From NCBI GenBank assembly GCA_000961575.1, contig LADP01000023.1, positions 56,351-88,350 on the forward strand: a stretch of DNA of 32,000 bases. The letters run 5' to 3'. The stretch comes from Peptococcaceae bacterium BRH_c8a (GTDB taxonomy: Bacteria > Bacillota > Desulfotomaculia > Desulfotomaculales > Desulfallaceae). Within the stretch, counting starts at the first letter, position 1. The number at the start of each line of letters is the position of its first letter. This document shows, one piece after another, positions 1,137-26,726 of this stretch. Under the pieces are notes generated by a model that searched no databases, had not been told where the DNA came from, and worked only from the letters and a program-made list of their open reading frames with translations. The position numbers and the translations under genes are program-made.

Positions 1137-1255
1137 CCTAAGTTGGGACATTCACCAATTGGGGACATTTCCTAAGTTGGGGACATTCCCTAAGTTGGGG
1201 ACATTCCCCCGCAGGGGGTGTGTCCCCTTTCCTTAAACGGGTGTGTCCCCTTTCC
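1137..1255. repeat. Array of GGGGACA-hairpin repeat half-sites (4 left halves + 2 right halves)
   Basis: cctaagttgggacattcacc / aattggggacatttcc / taagttggggacattccc / taagttggggacattccc / ccgcagggggtgtgtcccctttcc / ttaaacgggtgtgtcccctttcc. Directly abuts the yabG stop codon (1258-1256). Confidence 0.9.
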
Positions 1256-2149
1256 TTAATACGGCGATCGTGGTACACCGAGACGATGTTTGCCCCGGGT
1301 TTCGATCCCCCCGATACCGTCGAAACCGGTAATGGTTCCGGCAATAACTTCCCTTAAGGGGATCGGATCGTAAATCGAGGTATAGGCAACCTTTTCCATC
1401 ACAAAAACAGGATCAAAAGCATGTATTAAAACTCTTTTCGGTGAGCTGGCAAAGTTGGCCCCGGCGGACAGAAGAGCCTCGTAATGGGATTGGCATGCAC
1501 CGGCAAAAATAACCAAATCGTCACGGCTTTTTTCATATCGTCTGGCTGTTTGGACGGCGTTAACAAAGTTTGTTGTATTATGATAATTTTTAATTTCGGT
1601 AAAATCTTTAGTTCCTTTGGCAAACCCGTCATGTCCGGTTAGCACCAACAGATCCGGCCGGTGTTTAACCAACAAGTCATATACTTTTTCCGCCTGTTTA
1701 TCCTCAGCGATATGGTAACCATCGGCCGGTATTTTAAGCTGCTTATAAGTGGTCATGCACAAGTCCAGGTAATCACTGTCACCGTCTATATGCAGCACGC
1801 TGCCCGGCACGTCAAAACCCTCCACATCCCCGGGGCCGTCTGGGTCAGTCACCGATCTCATCAAACTCCTTTGGTGTTCTTCCCGGCGGCGCTTGAACAC
1901 ATTGCGCATAGCTTCGTGGTTCTTGGCCAATGTCATACGCCAGTAATCTGCCACCCTGGATGGCTCAATCCGTTCTAAATCCTCCAACGGTGCCGTTGCA
2001 CAAAGGCGCACATCCAGACCTTTTAAAGAAACAATTTTACTACCTTCGATATCTTCAATATTAATTACTTTGAAATAAATATCATGTCTGTAAGACTTGC
2101 GCCCAACTATGTCACCTACCCTTATTTCTCCCACAGCATCCCCTCCCAC
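1256..2149 (-). CDS. yabG: Sporulation-specific protease YabG (peptidase U57)
   Basis: Colinear with B. subtilis YabG as I recall it: GDIVGRKSY..D..F.., LVLTGHD, IFAGACQSH.E.L..AGANFASSP.RV.IHA.DP, GGIETRG. The likely true start is GTG at 2134 (RBS GGGAGGGGA 5 nt upstream) rather than the ORF-track start at 2149. Confidence 0.9.
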   Translation of the reverse strand: MGGDAVGEIRVGDIVGRKSYRHDIYFKVINIEDIEGSKIVSLKGLDVRLCATAPLEDLERIEPSRVADYWRMTLAKNHEAMRNVFKRRREEHQRSLMRSVTDPDGPGDVEGFDVPGSVLHIDGDSDYLDLCMTTYKQLKIPADGYHIAEDKQAEKVYDLLVKHRPDLLVLTGHDGFAKGTKDFTEIKNYHNTTNFVNAVQTARRYEKSRDDLVIFAGACQSHYEALLSAGANFASSPKRVLIHAFDPVFVMEKVAYTSIYDPIPLREVIAGTITGFDGIGGIETRGKHRLGVPRSPY

Positions 2150-3264: not shown

Positions 3265-3511
3265 AAAAAACCAGCCTTCGCGGCGATCCGGTGATATCCG
3301 GAGCGAACGGTGCACCTGGATGCGTTGATTAGCCCGTCATAGCCCCGAATTCATGGCTGCTTAGGGCGTAACCAAACGGGTATGCAGTTTGTGCCATGTG
3401 GTAACAATAACCGGCTCCAATCACAACATTAAGAATTGCAAAAGAGAGCGGAGCGATATCACCGGAGCGCCGCGCCCACTACAACCAACGCTTAAAGTAT
3501 TTTCAGGGTAG
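3265..3511. repeat. Structured repeat family B, long form (MITE-like, with ~160-bp internal segment)
   Basis: The outer 40 bp (aaaaaccagccttcgcggcgatccggtgatatccggagcg) and the last 42 bp (ccgcgcccactacaaccaacgcttaaagtattttcagggtag) match the reverse complement of 11840-11921 at about 95%. The internal segment 3306-3467 is bounded by the inverted repeat CGCGGCGnTCCGGTGATATC. Confidence 0.85.
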
Positions 3512-4039: not shown

Positions 4040-4061
4040 ACTGGTCCATCTCCTTTACATC

Positions 4062-4092
4062 AGTTGGGGAAAGGAGGTGTGTCACCTTTCCT
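4062..4092. repeat. Degenerate GGGGACA-hairpin repeat copy (intergenic, ksgA/YkuK-like)
   Basis: agttgggga--aaggaggtgtgtcacctttcc. The left half is partly deleted and the right half has one mismatch. Confidence 0.7.
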
Positions 4093-4123
4093 CAATTGTA
4101 ATTACTTTACGGCAAGCGCATAT

Positions 4124-5020
4124 TTATAACAAATAGGCATTGGTATATGCATCAGCCAACCGGGCAAATTCCCCTAGGCTGAGGGTCTCCCCCCGACGGC
4201 CCGGTTCAATATCCGCTTGTTGGAAAACACCTAACCACATCTCCTTGGATATTCGTTTGTCGATACAGCCGACAGCATTGAGCAAAGTCTTCCTGCGCTG
4301 TTGAAACCCGGCCCGCACCAGGGCAAAAAATACTTTTTTATCTTTCACCGATACCGCCGGTGTATCCCTGACATCCAGTCTGACCACCGCCGAGTCCACT
4401 TCCGGCCGCGGTATAAAAACCGTCCGGGGAACCCGAAACACCATCTCGGTATGCGCATAAAAATTAACCGCTAAGGTTAGCGCACCGTACTCAGGTGTAT
4501 CTGGCCGGGCCATAATCCTCCGGGCTACCTCTTCCTGCACCATGACCACTATTCGGTTAATGGAAGAATGCTTTTCTAGTAAGTGCATAATCAGTGGAGT
4601 GGTAATATAATAGGGCAAGTTGGCCGCTACTTTGTACTGTGTGACCACATCACCCGTAAAAGGGGACGAGGTGTGTCCCCTTTCCGCTTTCACCAAACTG
4701 TCAAAATCGGTTTTAAGGGCATCCGACTCAATTATATGCACGTTATCTAGCCCGGTCATGGTCTCTTCCAACACGGGGATTAAATTCCGGTCTATTTCCA
4801 CCGCCAATACCTGCCCGGCTCTGGCAGCCAGGGAACGGGTGAGCGCGCCAAGTCCAGGTCCGATTTCTACCACCGTGTCCGCAGGACTAGGCTCAACGGC
4901 AGCTACTATTTTCCTTATAATATTGCCGTCAATTAGAAAGTTTTGACCCAGGCTTTTTTTTATCCTAAAACCGTGGCGAGAAATTAACTCCTTGACTACA
5001 GCTGGCGAAACAGGATCCAT
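4124..5020 (-). CDS. rsmA: 16S rRNA (adenine1518/1519-N6)-dimethyltransferase RsmA/KsgA
   Basis: KKSLGQNFLID, VVEIGPGLGALT, ANLPYYITTP and FQQRRKTL motifs. The likely start is ATG 5020 (RBS GGAGG 8 nt upstream); the ORF-track start at 5041 has no RBS. Confidence 0.93.
   Translation of the reverse strand: MDPVSPAVVKELISRHGFRIKKSLGQNFLIDGNIIRKIVAAVEPSPADTVVEIGPGLGALTRSLAARAGQVLAVEIDRNLIPVLEETMTGLDNVHIIESDALKTDFDSLVKAERGHTSSPFTGDVVTQYKVAANLPYYITTPLIMHLLEKHSSINRIVVMVQEEVARRIMARPDTPEYGALTLAVNFYAHTEMVFRVPRTVFIPRPEVDSAVVRLDVRDTPAVSVKDKKVFFALVRAGFQQRRKTLLNAVGCIDKRISKEMWLGVFQQADIEPGRRGETLSLGEFARLADAYTNAYLL
4658..4687. repeat. GGGGACA-hairpin repeat copy inside the ksgA coding sequence (in-frame)
   Basis: aaaaggggac-gaggtgtgtcccctttccgc. 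Translated on the minus strand as ..K-AERGHTSSPF-TG.. in the variable loop just before the ANLPYY motif. Confidence 0.8.
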
Positions 5021-5055
5021 AAATAAGCCTCCGAAAAACATTAAATTAGGGCATT

Positions 5056-5093
5056 ATTTGGGGACATTCCCCCGCAGGGGGTGTACCCTTTCC
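5056..5093. repeat. GGGGACA-hairpin repeat copy (intergenic, yabE/ksgA)
   Basis: atttggggacattcccccgcagggggtgt-accctttcc. Confidence 0.9.
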
Positions 5094-5153
5094 TTTTTAA
5101 TATAAATAGAAGATCCTTACATTTACTATCATACCCTTTTTTATGGTAAAGTC

Positions 5154-9332: not shown

Positions 9333-9477
9333 GGATGTTTGAAAAGTCCGCGCGAGATCCACTTCGAATTTCTACGTTGGCTTGGCTTTTGCGGTGCTCA
9401 TGTATTATATATACACTCCGCTCCTCAAAGCCTTCGCCGCCTTGAACTTCTCGTGTCTCTCGTGCTCCTTTTCAAAC
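9333..9477. repeat. Structured repeat family C, copy 1 (MITE-like, ~145 bp)
   Basis: About 85% identical to the reverse complement of 16519-16664. Termini are GGATGTTTGAAAAG ... CTTTTCAAAC (inverted). The right end overlaps the tatD TGA stop (9474-9472). Confidence 0.85.
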
Positions 9478-10248
9478 TTTTAAATTAAACAATTTTTCAG
9501 CGTTGGCTGTGGTGGCTAGGGCCAGCTCTTCAATAGTGATGCCCCGCAGTTGGGCAATGTGCTCGGCCACGTAGCGCACGTGGGCCGGTTCGTTGCGCCG
9601 CCCGCGAAAAGGTTCGGGCGCCAGATAAGGGCAGTCGGTTTCAATCAGCAGACGCTCTAGCGGCACTTTTACCGCAATATCTTTTAGCTTGGCAGCGTTT
9701 TTAAAAGTAACCGGGCCGGCCAGTGAAATATAAAAACCCATTTCTATGCTCTCACGGGCTACCTCCAAACTGCCGCTGAAGCAATGCATTACTCCGCCCG
9801 CCGGGCTAATGCCGTCGGAGCGCAAAATCTCCAGCAAGTCTCCGAAAGCGTCCCTGGAATGGATGATTACAGGCATGTTAAGCTCCCGCACCAGGGCCAA
9901 CTGCTCCCGAAACACCCGCTGCTGGATTGGTCGGGGGGATAGGTCTCGGTAATAATCCAAACCCATTTCACCCATAGCCACCACCCCGGGACGGCGTGCC
10001 AACTGCTCCAGGCGGGCCAGGTAATCATCAGGTACGTCTTCGGCATCGTGGGGGTGCACCCCTACCGAGGCCACCACCGAAGGCCGCTCCCCGGCCATGT
10101 TTGCCGTTTCTTCAGAAGATTTTAGATCAAAGGCGGCACACAGCACCCGGGTAACTCCCGCTTCTTGCATGCGCCCAAATACTTTGTCCAGGTCTTGTTT
10201 AAATTGTTCGTTGTTCAGGTGCACGTGGGTGTCAAACAGTTCAACCAT
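9472..10248 (-). CDS. tatD: TatD-family metal-dependent hydrolase/DNase (YabD)
   Basis: FDTHVHL, GE.GLDY, VIIHSRDA, LLIETDCPYL motifs. The ATG lies 1 nt after the metG stop, with its RBS inside the metG 3' end. Confidence 0.92.
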   Translation of the reverse strand: MVELFDTHVHLNNEQFKQDLDKVFGRMQEAGVTRVLCAAFDLKSSEETANMAGERPSVVASVGVHPHDAEDVPDDYLARLEQLARRPGVVAMGEMGLDYYRDLSPRPIQQRVFREQLALVRELNMPVIIHSRDAFGDLLEILRSDGISPAGGVMHCFSGSLEVARESIEMGFYISLAGPVTFKNAAKLKDIAVKVPLERLLIETDCPYLAPEPFRGRRNEPAHVRYVAEHIAQLRGITIEELALATTANAEKLFNLKV

Positions 10249-11839: not shown

Positions 11840-11921
11840 CTACCCTGAAAATACTTTAAAAGTTGGTTGTAGTGGACGCGGCGCTCCGGATATCACCGGA
11901 TCGCCGCGAAGGCTGGTTTTT
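11840..11921. repeat. Structured repeat family B, short form (hairpin only)
   Basis: ctaccctgaaaatactttaaaagttggttgtagtgga-CGCGGCGCTCCGG-atatca-CCGGATCGCCGCG-aaggctggttttt. This is the reverse complement of the two ends of 3265-3511 joined directly. It lies between the T-box terminator and the metG start codon. Confidence 0.85.
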
Positions 11922-11930
11922 ACTACCCCC

Positions 11931-12262
11931 AAAATATAAACGCCCCTGGTTTACCCAGGGGCGAATTGTTTCGCGGTACCACCCTAATTTGCCGGCCCCT
12001 TAAAGGGCAAGCCTCGTTTAAGGTACGGGGAGAGTTCCCGATACCCCAAGCCTGATAACGGTGCTTAACCGGTATAGCTTATCGGGAAAGAGCTAGCACT
12101 TAATTGCGCTTTCCGTTCAGCTTACAGTTCCGAAGCCATGTTCAACCCGTTCTCCCCGGCGGGCTTTCACCTGTTCCCGCTCTCTGTACGGCTCTTCCGG
12201 ATTTACTCCCTCTCCATCATCACCGATGTATCTTATGTAAATAAAAAGCTATTAAAAATAAC
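11931..12262 (-). promoter_or_regulatory. T-box riboswitch leader (Met specifier) controlling metG
   Basis: Read on the minus strand. Stem I has AGAGAG...GGTGAAAG. The specifier-loop context is GAAC-AUG-G (AUG = 12139-12137). The canonical T-box sequence AAATTAGGGTGGTACCGCG lies at 12000-11982. The terminator is CGCCCCTGG-gtaa-ACCAGGGGCG + UUUAUAUUUU (11963-11931). Confidence 0.88.
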
Positions 12263-14736: not shown

Positions 14737-14783
14737 TGGCCATACCTCCTGTCAAACTTGCCTCATAATCCATCCATTGCATT

Positions 14784-14822
14784 AATTGGGGACATTCCTT
14801 GAAGGAGGTGTGTCCCCTTTCC
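14784..14822. repeat. GGGGACA-hairpin repeat copy (intergenic, holB/yaaT)
   Basis: aattggggacattccttgaaggaggtgtgtcccctttcc. Confidence 0.9.
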
Positions 14823-14829
14823 TTTTATC

Positions 14830-16456: not shown

Positions 16457-16482
16457 AAAAATTCATCTCCCGTACGTGGTTA

Positions 16483-16667
16483 TCGCGCGGACTTTTCGAA
16501 CATCCGTTTTAAATAAGAGTTCGATAAGGAGCACGAGAGACACGAGAAGTTCAAGGCGGCTTGGTTTTTGCGGAGCGGAGCGTATATGAGATACGTGAGC
16601 ACCGCAAAAGCCGAGCCAACGCAGAAATTCGACGGGGATCTCGCGCGGACTTTTCGAACATCCGTTT
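16483..16667. repeat. Structured repeat family C, copy 2, plus an extra solo terminal segment
   Basis: The core 16519-16664 is the inverse of 9333-9477. It has a 16-bp stem GGCTTGGTTTTTGCGG / CCGCAAAAGCCGAGCC. The 25-bp end CGCGCGGACTTTTCGAACATCCGTTT occurs twice in direct orientation (16484-16509 and 16642-16667). The second overlaps the decarboxylase stop codon. Confidence 0.85.
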
Positions 16668-18243
16668 AGGCATCAACGACCTGGATGGTATCTAACTTCG
16701 GGTCAGCAGCTCCCTGCTGATGCAATTCACATTCACGCACCTGTTGTAAGTATTCTACAACCGCCGGGGTAATTTCCTCCCCGGGGTAGATGGCGGTTAT
16801 TCCCGGCGGGTACACAGCCACGGATTCAGCGCTAACCCGGCCGGTGGATCGCTCCAGGGGTATAATCCGACGCGGTGCCAACCAGGCCTGGCGCGGGGTT
16901 AATACCTGCGGCGGTATCGGTGGGCCCGCAGGCAACGGAATGGGTGACCGGGGACTGTGGCCTTGTTCGGTCTGGCAGCTAAGTTCGGCCAGACCATTGA
17001 GCAACGCAATAATGTCAGATTTTTGGGTGCCCAGTGATAGTACCGCCACTATATTGAACGCATCGGACATTTCCAAGTGGATACCGTATTTATGAGCCAG
17101 CCATCGGGCCGCTGTGTGCCCTGAAATGCCCAACTGGCGTACCGAAATCACCAGTCGGGTGGGGTCGTGTCCGGCTGTACCGGAACTTCCCAGGTGCTCA
17201 GTGCCCAGCGTCGTCAGACCGGGCATCTTATTAATTATTGGTACCGCCTCGTGAACCCAGCCTAAAAGCTTGTCCAGAGTCTCTCTGCCATGACAGGTCA
17301 GGTAACCCCGGGCGGCGTCCAGGGAAGCCATCAACAAGTACGACGGGCTAGAGGTCTGCAACAAGCGCAGCACCTCCGCCACTCTTTCCCGGTCCACATA
17401 AGTTGGGGACATTCCTCCGCAGGAGGTGTGTCCCCTTTCCGCTATCGACATTCCTCCGCAGGAGGGGTGTCCCCTTTCCGCTCGTTCCGCTTTTCCCAAG
17501 TGCAGCCAGGATGCCTGGGTTAAAGCGCCTCCAGTTTTATGCACACTCTGCACCACCGCGTCAGCACCTAGGGAAAGTGCATCAGCGGGCAGATCGGGAT
17601 GTAAGCGCAGGTGTGTACCGTGAGCCTCGTCAACCAGCAATGGTACATTGTACCGATGGCAGATTGCCGCCGCTGCACCCAAATCACCCGTCACACCGTA
17701 ATAGTTTGGGTGAACTGCCAGTACCGCTCCGGCACCGGGGTTTTGCCGCAACCCATCAATCAGATCTTCCGGCCGAAACCCAGTAGCAAATTCAAAGCCG
17801 GGCACCACTTCGGGGGCCAAGAAAACCGGGCGGGCGCCGCTTATAATAAGCCCACCCAGCACGGAGCGGTGGGCGTTACGTGGCAGTACAAGCGGCCGGT
17901 TCTGATCACAACTAGCAGCTATGAGGGCCTGAATGCCAACTGTGGTGCCGTTAACCAAAAAAAATGTATGCCGGGCCCCGAAAAGCCCGGCGGCTTTTTC
18001 CTGGGCCGCCGCGATAACCCCGCCGGGGTTATGCAAATCGTCCAGGCCTTCCAATTCAGTTACATCCAAACCAGGTAGCCCGTCCATAAATTGGGGACAG
18101 GGGCATAAGTTTCCGCCATGACCGGGTACATGCATCCTTACCGGGCGTCTACGGCGGTATTCTTCCAGCGCATTAACCAGCGGTAGATCCGCAATTGGGG
18201 AGGGTTGTACCCTTTTTTCTTTATTAAACGGCAAAATTTTCAC
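16666..18243 (-). CDS. Orn/Lys/Arg decarboxylase family (PLP-dependent, YaaO-like)
   Basis: MHVPGHGG, LDDLHNP, VLPRNAHRS, VQSVHKT (PLP-Lys), SSPSYLLMASLD. Same position as B. subtilis yaaO, upstream of tmk. Contains an ~80-bp repeat-derived in-frame insertion. The start (GTG 18243 or TTG 18234) is uncertain. Confidence 0.9.
   Translation of the reverse strand: MKILPFNKEKRVQPSPIADLPLVNALEEYRRRRPVRMHVPGHGGNLCPCPQFMDGLPGLDVTELEGLDDLHNPGGVIAAAQEKAAGLFGARHTFFLVNGTTVGIQALIAASCDQNRPLVLPRNAHRSVLGGLIISGARPVFLAPEVVPGFEFATGFRPEDLIDGLRQNPGAGAVLAVHPNYYGVTGDLGAAAAICHRYNVPLLVDEAHGTHLRLHPDLPADALSLGADAVVQSVHKTGGALTQASWLHLGKAERAERGHPSCGGMSIAERGHTSCGGMSPTYVDRERVAEVLRLLQTSSPSYLLMASLDAARGYLTCHGRETLDKLLGWVHEAVPIINKMPGLTTLGTEHLGSSGTAGHDPTRLVISVRQLGISGHTAARWLAHKYGIHLEMSDAFNIVAVLSLGTQKSDIIALLNGLAELSCQTEQGHSPRSPIPLPAGPPIPPQVLTPRQAWLAPRRIIPLERSTGRVSAESVAVYPPGITAIYPGEEITPAVVEYLQQVRECELHQQGAADPKLDTIQVVDA
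17401..17490. repeat. Two tandem GGGGACA-hairpin repeat copies inside the decarboxylase CDS (in-frame)
   Basis: agttggggacattcctccgcaggaggtgtgtcccctttccgc + tatcgacattcctccgcaggaggggtgtcccctttccgc + partial tcgttccgc. Translated as AER-AERGHPSCGGMSI-AERGHTSCGGMSPT. Confidence 0.9.
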
Positions 18244-26327: not shown

Positions 26328-26597
26328 ACCGCACACCTGCCGTCGAATAATAACTTCCGGGCGTTACCCCTGCAGGTAGCTCAGACCAGGCGCCCTTGCG
26401 GCACCCGGAGTATCTTCCTTAGTGCTGCTTCCGTCAGGATCTGACACGGTTCAAAAGGCTCCGTCGCGCAAGACCCGGCCTTCAACACTCCTTACAGGGG
26501 GCAGACCCCACAAGCCAAACCCTCGGGCAGGAATTCAACCCCGCTATAGCGGATTGCGGGTTCAGGGCACCGCTACCTCCCCGTCTAGTACGGCCAA
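26328..26597 (-). ncRNA. ffs: Signal recognition particle RNA (long Bacillus-type scRNA/ffs)
   Basis: The minus strand reads ...CTAGACGGGGAGGTAGCGGTGCCCTGAACCCGCAATCCGCTATAGCGGGG... and ...GTCAGATCCTGACGGAAGCAGCACTAAGG...GCCGCAAGGGCGCCTGG.... These match the Alu-domain and domain-IV (GGAAGCAGC) blocks of B. subtilis scRNA. It lies directly upstream of dnaX, as in B. subtilis. The ends are approximate. Confidence 0.85.
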
Positions 26598-26632: not shown

Positions 26633-26726
26633 TGGCGGAGAGAGAGGGATTCGAACCCTCGAAACGGTTTCAAGCCGTTTACGCGATTTCCAGTCGCGCG
26701 CCTTCGACCAGCTCAGCCATCTCTCC
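26633..26726 (-). tRNA. tRNA-Ser (anticodon GGA), CCA encoded
   Basis: Minus strand: GGAGAGA acceptor pairs with TCTCTCC. The anticodon stem is CGCGA/TCGCG with loop CTGGAAA. The long variable arm is AACGG...CCGTT. The T-arm is GAGGG-TTCGAAT-CCCTC. It ends GCCA. Confidence 0.93.

Follow-up and report, generated by a model that had tools for sequence, protein, structure and literature searches.

How does a pyridoxal phosphate (PLP)-dependent decarboxylase come to carry two tandem copies of a palindromic DNA repeat within its reading frame, and what does the enzyme make of them? The question is raised by a 32,000-nt stretch of Peptococcaceae bacterium BRH_c8a (contig LADP01000023.1, 56,351-88,350; hereafter the window, whose coordinates are used throughout), in which the minus strand is the gene sense for both the decarboxylase and ksgA (rsmA), a second gene containing the repeat. 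We consider it probable that the insert is a copy of a small repetitive extragenic palindromic (REP)-like repeat that was inserted, was expanded in tandem and is translated as a tolerated flexible loop, its reading frame having been set by a filter on survival. The gene and its insert comprise the following features:

16666..18234, minus strand: the host gene, a PLP-dependent Orn/Lys/Arg decarboxylase (OKR_DC_1 and OKR_DC_1_C), 522 residues with a TTG start
17404..17442, minus strand: distal 39-nt unit of the insert, GCGGAAA-GGGGACACACCTCC-TGC-GGAGGAATGTCCCC-A, encoding AERGHTSCGGMSP; a zero-mismatch match to the repeat pattern
17443..17481, minus strand: proximal 39-nt unit, encoding AERGHPSCGGMSI, with its inner stem intact
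17482..17493, minus strand: partial third unit, AAAGCGGAACGA, encoding K-A-E-R
about 18192-18222, minus strand: decayed third copy near the N-terminus of the decarboxylase, AAAGAAAAAAGGGTACAACCCTCCCCAATTG, encoding KEKRVQPSPI, found by repeat search

The minus-strand open reading frame (ORF) across the insert reads TQASWLHLGKAERAERGHPSCGGMSIAERGHTSCGGMSPTYVDRERVAEVLRLLQTSSPSYLL, and in gene sense positions 17510-17380 translate as ...WLHLG-KAER-AERGHPSCGGMSI-AERGHTSCGGMSP-TYVDRERV.... Between 17404 and 17493, two tandem units of 39 nt (13 codons) and a short remnant of a third supply about 29 extra residues in place of a turn of 3-4 residues. ORF translation and Tandem Repeats Finder (period 39, 1.9 copies, 97% matches, 17408-17482) confirmed the original prediction that the insert is encoded in frame by two units and a partial third, and the orthologue alignment bore out its placing of dispersed-repeat units between conserved blocks. 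The figure of about 27 inserted residues needs correction, the excess being about 26 residues relative to the closest insert-free relative and about 29 relative to distant orthologues and to the structure PDB 2x3l. The full 36-nt pattern was matched twice in the window versus 0.00 matches expected by chance, and the 13-nt arm eight times versus 1.06 expected. Two tandem hairpins had been proposed, of which the distal one is intact (core 17405-17435; RNA fold -21.9 kcal/mol, z -4.5), whereas the proximal unit (core 17444-17474) has lost its outer 3' arm, where GTCGAT replaces GTCCCC, and its fold by itself is no more stable than those of shuffled sequences (-12.7 kcal/mol, z 0.09). Folded jointly, the two units give a composite hairpin (-40.7 kcal/mol, z -3.5) in which the proximal unit pairs with the distal. 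To judge from the sequence the insert is presumably translated, and the predicted tryptic peptides that span it include GHPSCGGMSIAER and GHTSCGGMSPTYVDR.

The host ORF matched OKR_DC_1 in Pfam (E=7e-59; PF01276, 200 bits) and the corresponding C-terminal domain (PF03711, 38 bits), and 2196 homologues were found, typically 480-489 residues in length. The S-x-H-K motif of the PLP lysine is present as a conserved SVHK, with K236 an invariant column of the orthologue alignment, and all family-invariant catalytic columns are retained in the insert-bearing protein. The ORF listing runs to a GTG at 18243 (525 residues), but the TTG at 18234, giving 522 residues, is the likely start, because the upstream AGGTGA Shine-Dalgarno sequence is conserved in relatives and the database protein has 522 residues.

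Structural evidence places the insert in a loop, which had been put forward earlier as a point to check. In an AlphaFold2 model built from 117 sequences (mean predicted local distance difference test score, pLDDT, 90; predicted template modelling score 0.90), the insert is a coil of pLDDT 52-66 between the strand 242-246 and the helix 282-292, and the remainder of the model is confident. PDB 2x3l matches the decarboxylase (E=1e-45) in an alignment that splits exactly at the insert, with query residues 21-251 and 285-514 against residues 5-226 and 231-438 of the chain. The site lies about 14 residues past the PLP lysine, in the turn after the last β-strand of the PLP-binding domain.

Three syntenic relatives of 81-87% identity (loci L001, L002 and L003) were compared with the window at the DNA level, and close orthologues with and without the insert exist, which answers the presence-absence comparison proposed earlier. 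At the main site two units are likewise present in L001 ('Desulfotomaculum sp. BL5_bin.2'), which comes from a different species and was assembled independently; they stand at the same position, and their loop codons are GCT and CTT where the window has TGC and TGC. L002 is scarred, only ATGTCCCCAA and the scar AGCGGAAAC being left; L003 has a short loop (GEKEEIR); and more distant orthologues have about three residues (G-SAR-VD). A second site near the N-terminus holds two units in L001, one unit plus a scar in L002 and the decayed copy in the window, and is empty in L003. The partial third unit of the window may likewise be the 5'-flank scar of a former unit that has lost its hairpin (AGCGGAAC, 17484-17491), since a scar of the same kind, without a hairpin, stands at both decarboxylase sites of L002. 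No clear target-site duplication was seen between filled and empty sites, a comparison weakened by the scars and by secondary deletions.

The Nei-Gojobori ratio of nonsynonymous to synonymous substitution rates (dN/dS) was 0.16-0.23 for all pairs, with dS 0.38-0.55, and because these pairs include the window and L001, both of which bear the insert, we concluded that the decarboxylase is under purifying selection while carrying it. Assembly error and pseudogene status, which had been named as possible refutations, fare poorly on these data. The sequence has a metagenomic source, and short palindromic repeats are hard to assemble, so that a mis-assembled or collapsed repeat, or a dead gene with an accidentally open frame, has to be considered. 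However, the exact 522-residue decarboxylase is recorded on 11 contigs, nine of them of 50-200 kb, and the exact KsgA protein on 14, and the independent L001 assembly repeats the two-unit architecture. Mis-assembly is unlikely because of the identical protein on those 11 contigs, and decay to a pseudogene because of the dN/dS values; the frame also stays open through the insert of about 90 nt in an ORF of 522 codons with every family-invariant residue present. Taken together, an artefact or dead gene is extremely improbable.

The orthologues bear equally on whether the loop has been co-opted, that is, whether the insert gives the decarboxylase, and the shorter one KsgA, a new and selected property, for instance in oligomer contacts, in regulation or in the binding of partners. 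Retention of the two-unit insert at the main site in two species at dS of about 0.5 would fit such a role, as would the proximity of the site to the PLP lysine. Three equally close relatives (L002, L003 and P0005), however, do without the main-site insert, the loop codon of the decarboxylase units varies freely (C, A, L, Y, G), and AlphaFold2 predicts no structure for the loop. Moreover, the unit sequences are those of a generic, unspecialised repeat found genome-wide, and the same peptide occurs in unrelated proteins. We therefore regard co-option as very unlikely.

The repeat occurs at six loci in the window, in one orientation throughout and always sense to the minus-strand genes. The intergenic copies are:

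1137..1264, minus strand: intergenic fan array, found by repeat search and Tandem Repeats Finder
4060..4097, minus strand: degenerate copy that has lost internal sequence, in the intergenic DNA downstream of ksgA, found by repeat and pattern search
5054..5095, minus strand: intergenic copy in the ksgA 5' leader, sense, found by repeat and pattern search and by folding
14781..14828, minus strand: intergenic copy directly after the holB stop codon, sense; fold -16.4 kcal/mol, z -3.1

In the copy at 5054..5095 the inner stem is compensated (CCCCC/GGGGG) and the 5' arm lacks 1 nt. In the fan array at 1137-1264, a single full hairpin stands between two extra tandem 5' half-arms (period 23) and some four tandem 3' half-arms (period 18). 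The same architecture recurs at positions 2760-2930 of L072, from a distantly related Syntrophomonadaceae metagenome-assembled genome (MAG); over both arrays the period is 18 or 16 for the 3' half-arms and 23 for the 5' half-arms.

From 140 copies anchored on the hairpin we derived a consensus of about 45 nt, A.GG.NNN-GGGGACACACCTCC-NNN-GGAGGAATGTCCCC-AA, with no conservation beyond about ±10 nt and a 3' flank of AA(C/T). The hairpin core of 31 nt consists of a 7-bp outer stem, a 2x2 internal loop, a 5-bp inner stem and a 3-nt loop, the last being TTC in 78 of the 140 copies and TGC in 28. Even at positions that the scan pattern left free the core is near-invariant (A in 140/144 and T-A in 125/144 of the matches listed). 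Covariation support for an RNA structure is weak because the copies are nearly identical, with three C-G and one G-T compensatory changes versus 15 mismatches. No copy matched an Rfam family, whether the gathering threshold or E<=5 was applied, and searches of the literature on Syntrophomonas, Desulfotomaculum and Clostridia, whose coverage did not extend to subscription journals, returned no description of the repeat. It seems to be an undescribed small REP-like palindromic repeat.

The copy within ksgA provides a second coding example in the same window:

4662..4690, minus strand: ksgA (rsmA) copy, AAAGCGGAAAGGGGACACACCTC^GTCCCC, a unit with a 12-nt (4-codon) internal deletion

It encodes KAERGHTSSP, in the same frame as the decarboxylase copies, as had been claimed, and its RNA fold has -15.8 kcal/mol (z -2.5). 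Alignment with PDB 6ifs places it between the DALKxD and NLPYY motifs, in a loop that is variable. KAERGHTDSG, a decayed form of it, is present in the closest relative, P0122 (90% identity), and other KsgA orthologues are 8-9 residues shorter at this site. As a separate observation, the probable start codon of ksgA is not at 5041 but is the ATG at 5020, which gives the MDPVSP beginning shared by nearly all aligned orthologues.

A scan with the pattern GGGGACACNCCNCCNNNGGNGGAATGTC over one representative genome per species found at least 118 stretches in at least 45 other genomes. The carriers belong to Desulfotomaculum, Peptococcaceae, Pelotomaculum, Desulfoscipio, Desulfotruncus, Desulfallas, Desulforadius, Desulfocucumis and Desulfosporosinus, and further to Syntrophomonas, Syntrophomonadaceae, Oscillospiraceae and Eubacteriales/Clostridia MAGs; at least 16 strict-pattern stretches come from one MAG. 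Of the carriers, the most contiguous assemblies are those of Syntrophomonas sp. DTU019 (contig 1, 1.13 Mb), Desulfotruncus alcoholivorax DSM 16058, Desulfoscipio geothermicus DSM 3669 and Pelotomaculum propionicicum MGP. Exact core matches were also present in bins labelled Candidatus Limnocylindrales, Actinomycetota and Deltaproteobacteria (L015, L066 and L111), which could reflect binning contamination or horizontal transfer. The copies are mostly intergenic, 91 of the 144 matches listed having no spanning ORF of at least 150 codons, and many of them lie directly behind stop codons. Multi-copy loci are direct tandem arrays (periods 36, 39, 44 and about 104 nt) or fan arrays, and the only inverted pair seen, in L072, has its copies 1.3 kb apart, each behind one of two convergent genes. 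The arrays run head-to-tail and lack spacers, and a CRISPR array was accordingly rejected as an identification. Plasmid, phage and IMG/VR collections held no match to the repeat and so gave no evidence of a mobile vector.

To describe the coding copies, every scan match was classed by its spanning ORFs and the hosts were verified with Pfam; frames are labelled S for the orientation seen in the window genes or A for antisense, followed by the codon offset. The original prediction had suggested that only one frame might be tolerated. This is refuted by intact copies in four other frame and orientation combinations (S0, S1, A2 and A0) within Pfam-verified proteins. The S2 frame (ERGHTSxGGMSP) is used in UvrD, UvrB, a topoisomerase, one protein lacking a Pfam match, both decarboxylase sites and KsgA. 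The S0 frame (GDTPPxEECPQ) occurs in NAD-dependent DNA ligase (LigA), in a histidine-kinase/response-regulator linker and in a NuoE-like C-terminal tail, and the S1 frame (GTHLLRRNVP) in StiP, the LigA and StiP copies coming from the sister genome of the window. The A0 frame (DIPPQEVCP) is found in a Pyr_redox_2 oxidoreductase with three 36-nt units, and the A2 frame (GHSSxGGVSPF) at five loci of Syntrophomonas, in an enzyme of the PPDK_N/PEP-utiliser type. In the latter, a pyruvate phosphate dikinase (PPDK)-like enzyme of about 940 residues, from one to five antisense 39-nt units lie between DIEWC and FILQSRPIT, at an insertion site common to L075, L013, L018, L090 and L114; L075 4128-4311 (Syntrophomonas sp. 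DTU019) has five units (GHSSAGGVSPFLS x5). L114 has in addition a second copy in another frame beside the array. In UvrD, UvrB, the topoisomerase, LigA, StiP, the PPDK-like enzyme and the oxidoreductase the position of the copies is mid-protein. Of the roughly ten intragenic hosts verified, four act in DNA repair or replication (L006, L055, L058 and L093: UvrD, UvrB, topoisomerase and LigA).

Because the element is a palindrome, its six frames reduce to three classes of peptide. Class I (S2/A2), Gly/Ser-rich, is the commonest, and class III (S1/A1), hydrophobic and basic, is rare. Among the matches listed, about 15 coding events can be taken as independent; some seven of them use the S2 frame (p=0.007 relative to a uniform expectation) and one belongs to class III (p=0.02), although the event counts behind these statistics are small and independence was judged by eye. 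The preference for S2 is explained in part by stop codons in the flanks, which close other frames: in 106 intergenic copies the frame is open through element and flanks in 86-95% for S2, 59-73% for S0, 33-58% for S1 and 36-51% for A1, and the common flanks TTAAGG..., ...AACTTATGA and ...AATTAAT carry stops in the latter three frames. The core by itself has no stop in any of the six frames, but the idea that this is a special adaptation was rejected, 12.6% of composition-matched shuffled tandem arrays being likewise stop-free.

The verified coding copies all have lengths divisible by three, contain no stop codon and continue the reading frame on both sides. Where arrays are coding, their period is 39 or 36 nt, as a selective filter on translated inserts predicts, whereas intergenic arrays have periods of 16, 18, 23, 44 or about 104 nt. 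A frame-preserving route of spread had also been put forward, and one part of it stands: tandem duplication keeps the frame because the unit is 39 nt, or 13 codons. The contrast between coding and intergenic periods, however, looks like a selective filter on survivors and not like a frame-aware mechanism of insertion. The same observations bear on whether the segment might be removed or skipped, by intein-like splicing, an RNA-level intervening sequence or ribosomal bypassing, so that the mature enzyme would have no insert. Nothing in the data favoured this, of which excision at the RNA level had been named earlier as a point to exclude. If the segment were excised or bypassed, the constraint to remain in phase would be unnecessary, and intergenic arrays show no such constraint. 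Inteins and intervening sequences, with about 130 residues or more and splice motifs, or with a ribozyme fold, are also a poor match to units of 13 residues without intein motifs, and no Rfam intron or ribozyme matched the region with either the gathering threshold or E<=5 as the cut-off. We give excision or bypassing almost no credence.

On the reading we favour, a copy of the repeat would have landed in the turn after the last β-strand of the PLP-binding domain and would have expanded by slippage in 13-codon (39-nt) steps; one unit may later have lost its hairpin, leaving a 5'-flank scar, and decay would now proceed by erosion of the arms and by hairpin-precise deletions. The insert would be transcribed and translated with the gene to give a flexible surface loop, rich in Gly, Ser, Thr and Pro, whose roughly 29 extra residues the enzyme appears to tolerate. 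To survive inside a gene, a copy would have to be divisible by three in length, leave the frame of the host free of stops and encode a harmless peptide. The ERGHTSxGGMSP frame would pass this filter most often, being least often closed by flank stops and giving the least hydrophobic peptide, which would explain why ksgA, both decarboxylase sites, UvrD, UvrB and the topoisomerase share it. The repeat itself would then be selfish or neutral rather than adaptive.

Several observations weigh against this reading. Between the window and L001, the stem and flank of the distal unit are identical at 33 of 33 positions while the 3-nt loop is entirely different, in a gene with 84% nucleotide identity overall, 73% identity at synonymous third positions and dS of about 0.49. 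A neutral passenger should have drifted at this distance, and the identity hints at constraint at the nucleotide level, at gene conversion from other copies or at recent independent insertions into a hot spot. Neither the near-invariance of the 31-nt core across classes nor the recurrence of fan arrays in distant genomes fits a purely neutral passenger. Loci of the window clade (the window and JAENYQ) are sense to the nearest gene in 12 of 12 cases (p=0.0005), which a simple selfish model does not explain; elsewhere the orientation is unbiased (8:8 and 5:5 are examples), and the matches listed sum to 65:52. The slenderness of the frame statistics counts on the same side.

Mobility is a further difficulty, being suggested by dispersal and insertion polymorphism only. 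Our neighbourhood searches sampled about 0.9 Mb. No transposase was recovered near the copies by clustering of 1368 ORFs from 118 loci or by a Pfam scan of the 148 ORFs lying within 1 kb of copies, which held housekeeping families only. A phmmer search with unverified E. coli YafM (RAYT) and IS608 TnpA queries, a weak test, likewise gave no match. As candidates for a gene family recurring beside the repeat, the largest clusters were sigma54-type AAA+ regulators, ABC ATPases (both abundant paralogues) and the PPDK-like host, and were rejected, as was a transposase between the inverted copies of L072, where the interval holds a 138-residue non-transposase ORF. An HUH transposase of the REP-associated tyrosine transposase (RAYT) or TIRYT type acting in trans is our leading guess, and only a guess, for the mobiliser; a RAYT gene is typically single-copy.

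A rival reading is that the hairpin is kept for a task at the nucleic-acid level, such as mRNA stability, processing, ribosome pausing or the binding, as DNA or RNA, of a conserved host protein, with the peptide as a by-product. The stem identity between species with differing loops, the core shared by at least 45 genomes of several classes, the 12:0 sense orientation, the many copies right after stop codons and the recurrent half-site fan arrays all speak for it. On the other side, decay has reached the proximal unit as well as the copies in ksgA and near the N-terminus, and the gene persists in relatives although the hairpin has been lost from them at both decarboxylase sites. Compensatory change is weak, the orientation bias does not extend to all genomes, no Rfam family matches, and recent spread or gene conversion could account for the conservation just as well. 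We judge such a role unlikely, though by no means negligible. A broader version would make the hairpin an actively maintained, chromosomally propagated nucleic-acid module common to several classes of anaerobic Bacillota, read by conserved protein or RNA machinery and repeatedly generating gains and losses of in-frame loops in core enzymes; maintenance would be by constraint on the stem or by continual gene conversion, even inside essential coding regions. This we consider decidedly unlikely.

With a selfish or neutral, REP-like repeat as the preferred explanation, its nearest counterparts among known systems can be compared. Rickettsia palindromic elements (RPEs) measure about 100-150 nt and are known only from Rickettsia. 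The present repeat behaves like them in being a dispersed palindrome found both between genes and in frame within genes that still function, in encoding a surface-compatible peptide and in varying in presence among close relatives. It differs in its unit of 39-45 nt, in its occurrence in free-living anaerobic Bacillota of several classes, all hosts being MAGs or isolates of Bacillota type, in its in-frame arrays of up to five units and, presumably, in its sequence. The unit length alone excludes it from the RPEs, and the likeness is behavioural only. These elements, described as inserted in frame in genes, are those of Ogata et al. 2000 as cited in PMC3733652.

Like REPs, the repeat is an imperfect, GC-rich palindrome of 20-40 bp, present in high copy, mostly intergenic, often after stop codons and occasionally intragenic. 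However, it has neither a GTAG/CTAC nor a CGTC/GACG tag in the 140 copies, it forms single copies, direct tandem arrays or fan arrays and not the inverted doublets of REPINs and BIMEs, and no RAYT (PF01797) was found near copies in the sampled neighbourhoods. REPs are usually species-specific, whereas the core here is conserved across classes. Di Nocera et al. 2013 (PMC3733652) described intragenic REPs (GTAG/CGTC) and RPEs, many of them in replication and repair genes; the intragenic hosts UvrD, UvrB, topoisomerase and LigA echo, by count, the enrichment reported there for intragenic REPs of Proteobacteria. RAYTs of group 1 do occur in Clostridia (PMC5581495).

The terminal inverted repeats (TIRs) of the RAYT-like TIRYT transposases carry a GGGGWSAS motif and form dimers or clusters, with examples in Proteobacteria and Acidobacteria (PMC3733652). 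The hairpin arm GGGGACAC fits this motif, a motif-level resemblance that serves as a lead and not as a test, but no TIRYT gene flanked by the repeat was found in the same sample. [quoted passage not shown] The present repeat resembles them as a non-autonomous element able to extend or interrupt ORFs in frame. It differs from their 70-300 bp, their TIRs of 15-30 bp and their target-site duplications in being about 45 nt long and essentially a hairpin alone.

The window contains other repeats and structured RNAs, which are set out here for completeness. A second, unrelated family of about 150 nt with a long internal hairpin has inverted copies at 16474-16667 and 9333-9490 that are 86% complementary. 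The former has a 36-nt end duplication (16474-16509 and 16632-16667) and fills the spacer between the decarboxylase and tmk, which is 209 nt in the window versus 27, 6 and 23 nt in L001, L002 and L003. This family, to which no Rfam or plasmid entry matched, may be a MITE-like insertion or a small RNA. Two further inverted-repeat pairs have members about 8.5 kb apart, 3266-3305 with 11882-11921 (40 nt, 100% complementary) and 3462-3511 with 11840-11889 (50 nt, 94% complementary), and one member lies between a T-box leader and the start of a Met-tRNA synthetase-like gene. Three RNAs passed the Rfam gathering threshold:

11954-12229, minus strand: T-box leader
26329-26593, minus strand: large bacterial signal recognition particle RNA
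26636-26726, minus strand: tRNA

In-frame intragenic palindromic repeats are already established through the RPEs and intragenic REPs, and it is the present family that seems undescribed. On the reading preferred here, it extends the phenomenon of selfish DNA within genes from the RPEs of Rickettsia and the REPs of proteobacteria to free-living syntrophic and sulfate-reducing Bacillota. The element is very small and well defined, and the sites at which the same enzymes hold it, duplicate it, retain its scar or lack it form natural series, useful for studying the gain and loss of surface loops and nucleic-acid constraint within coding DNA. Annotators and users of structure predictors should expect modules of 12-13 residues, GH[TS]SxGG[MV]SP, GD[TI]PPxE[EV]CP or GTHLLRRNVP, in proteins of these lineages, and none of these modules is to be taken for a domain, a frameshift or an assembly error.

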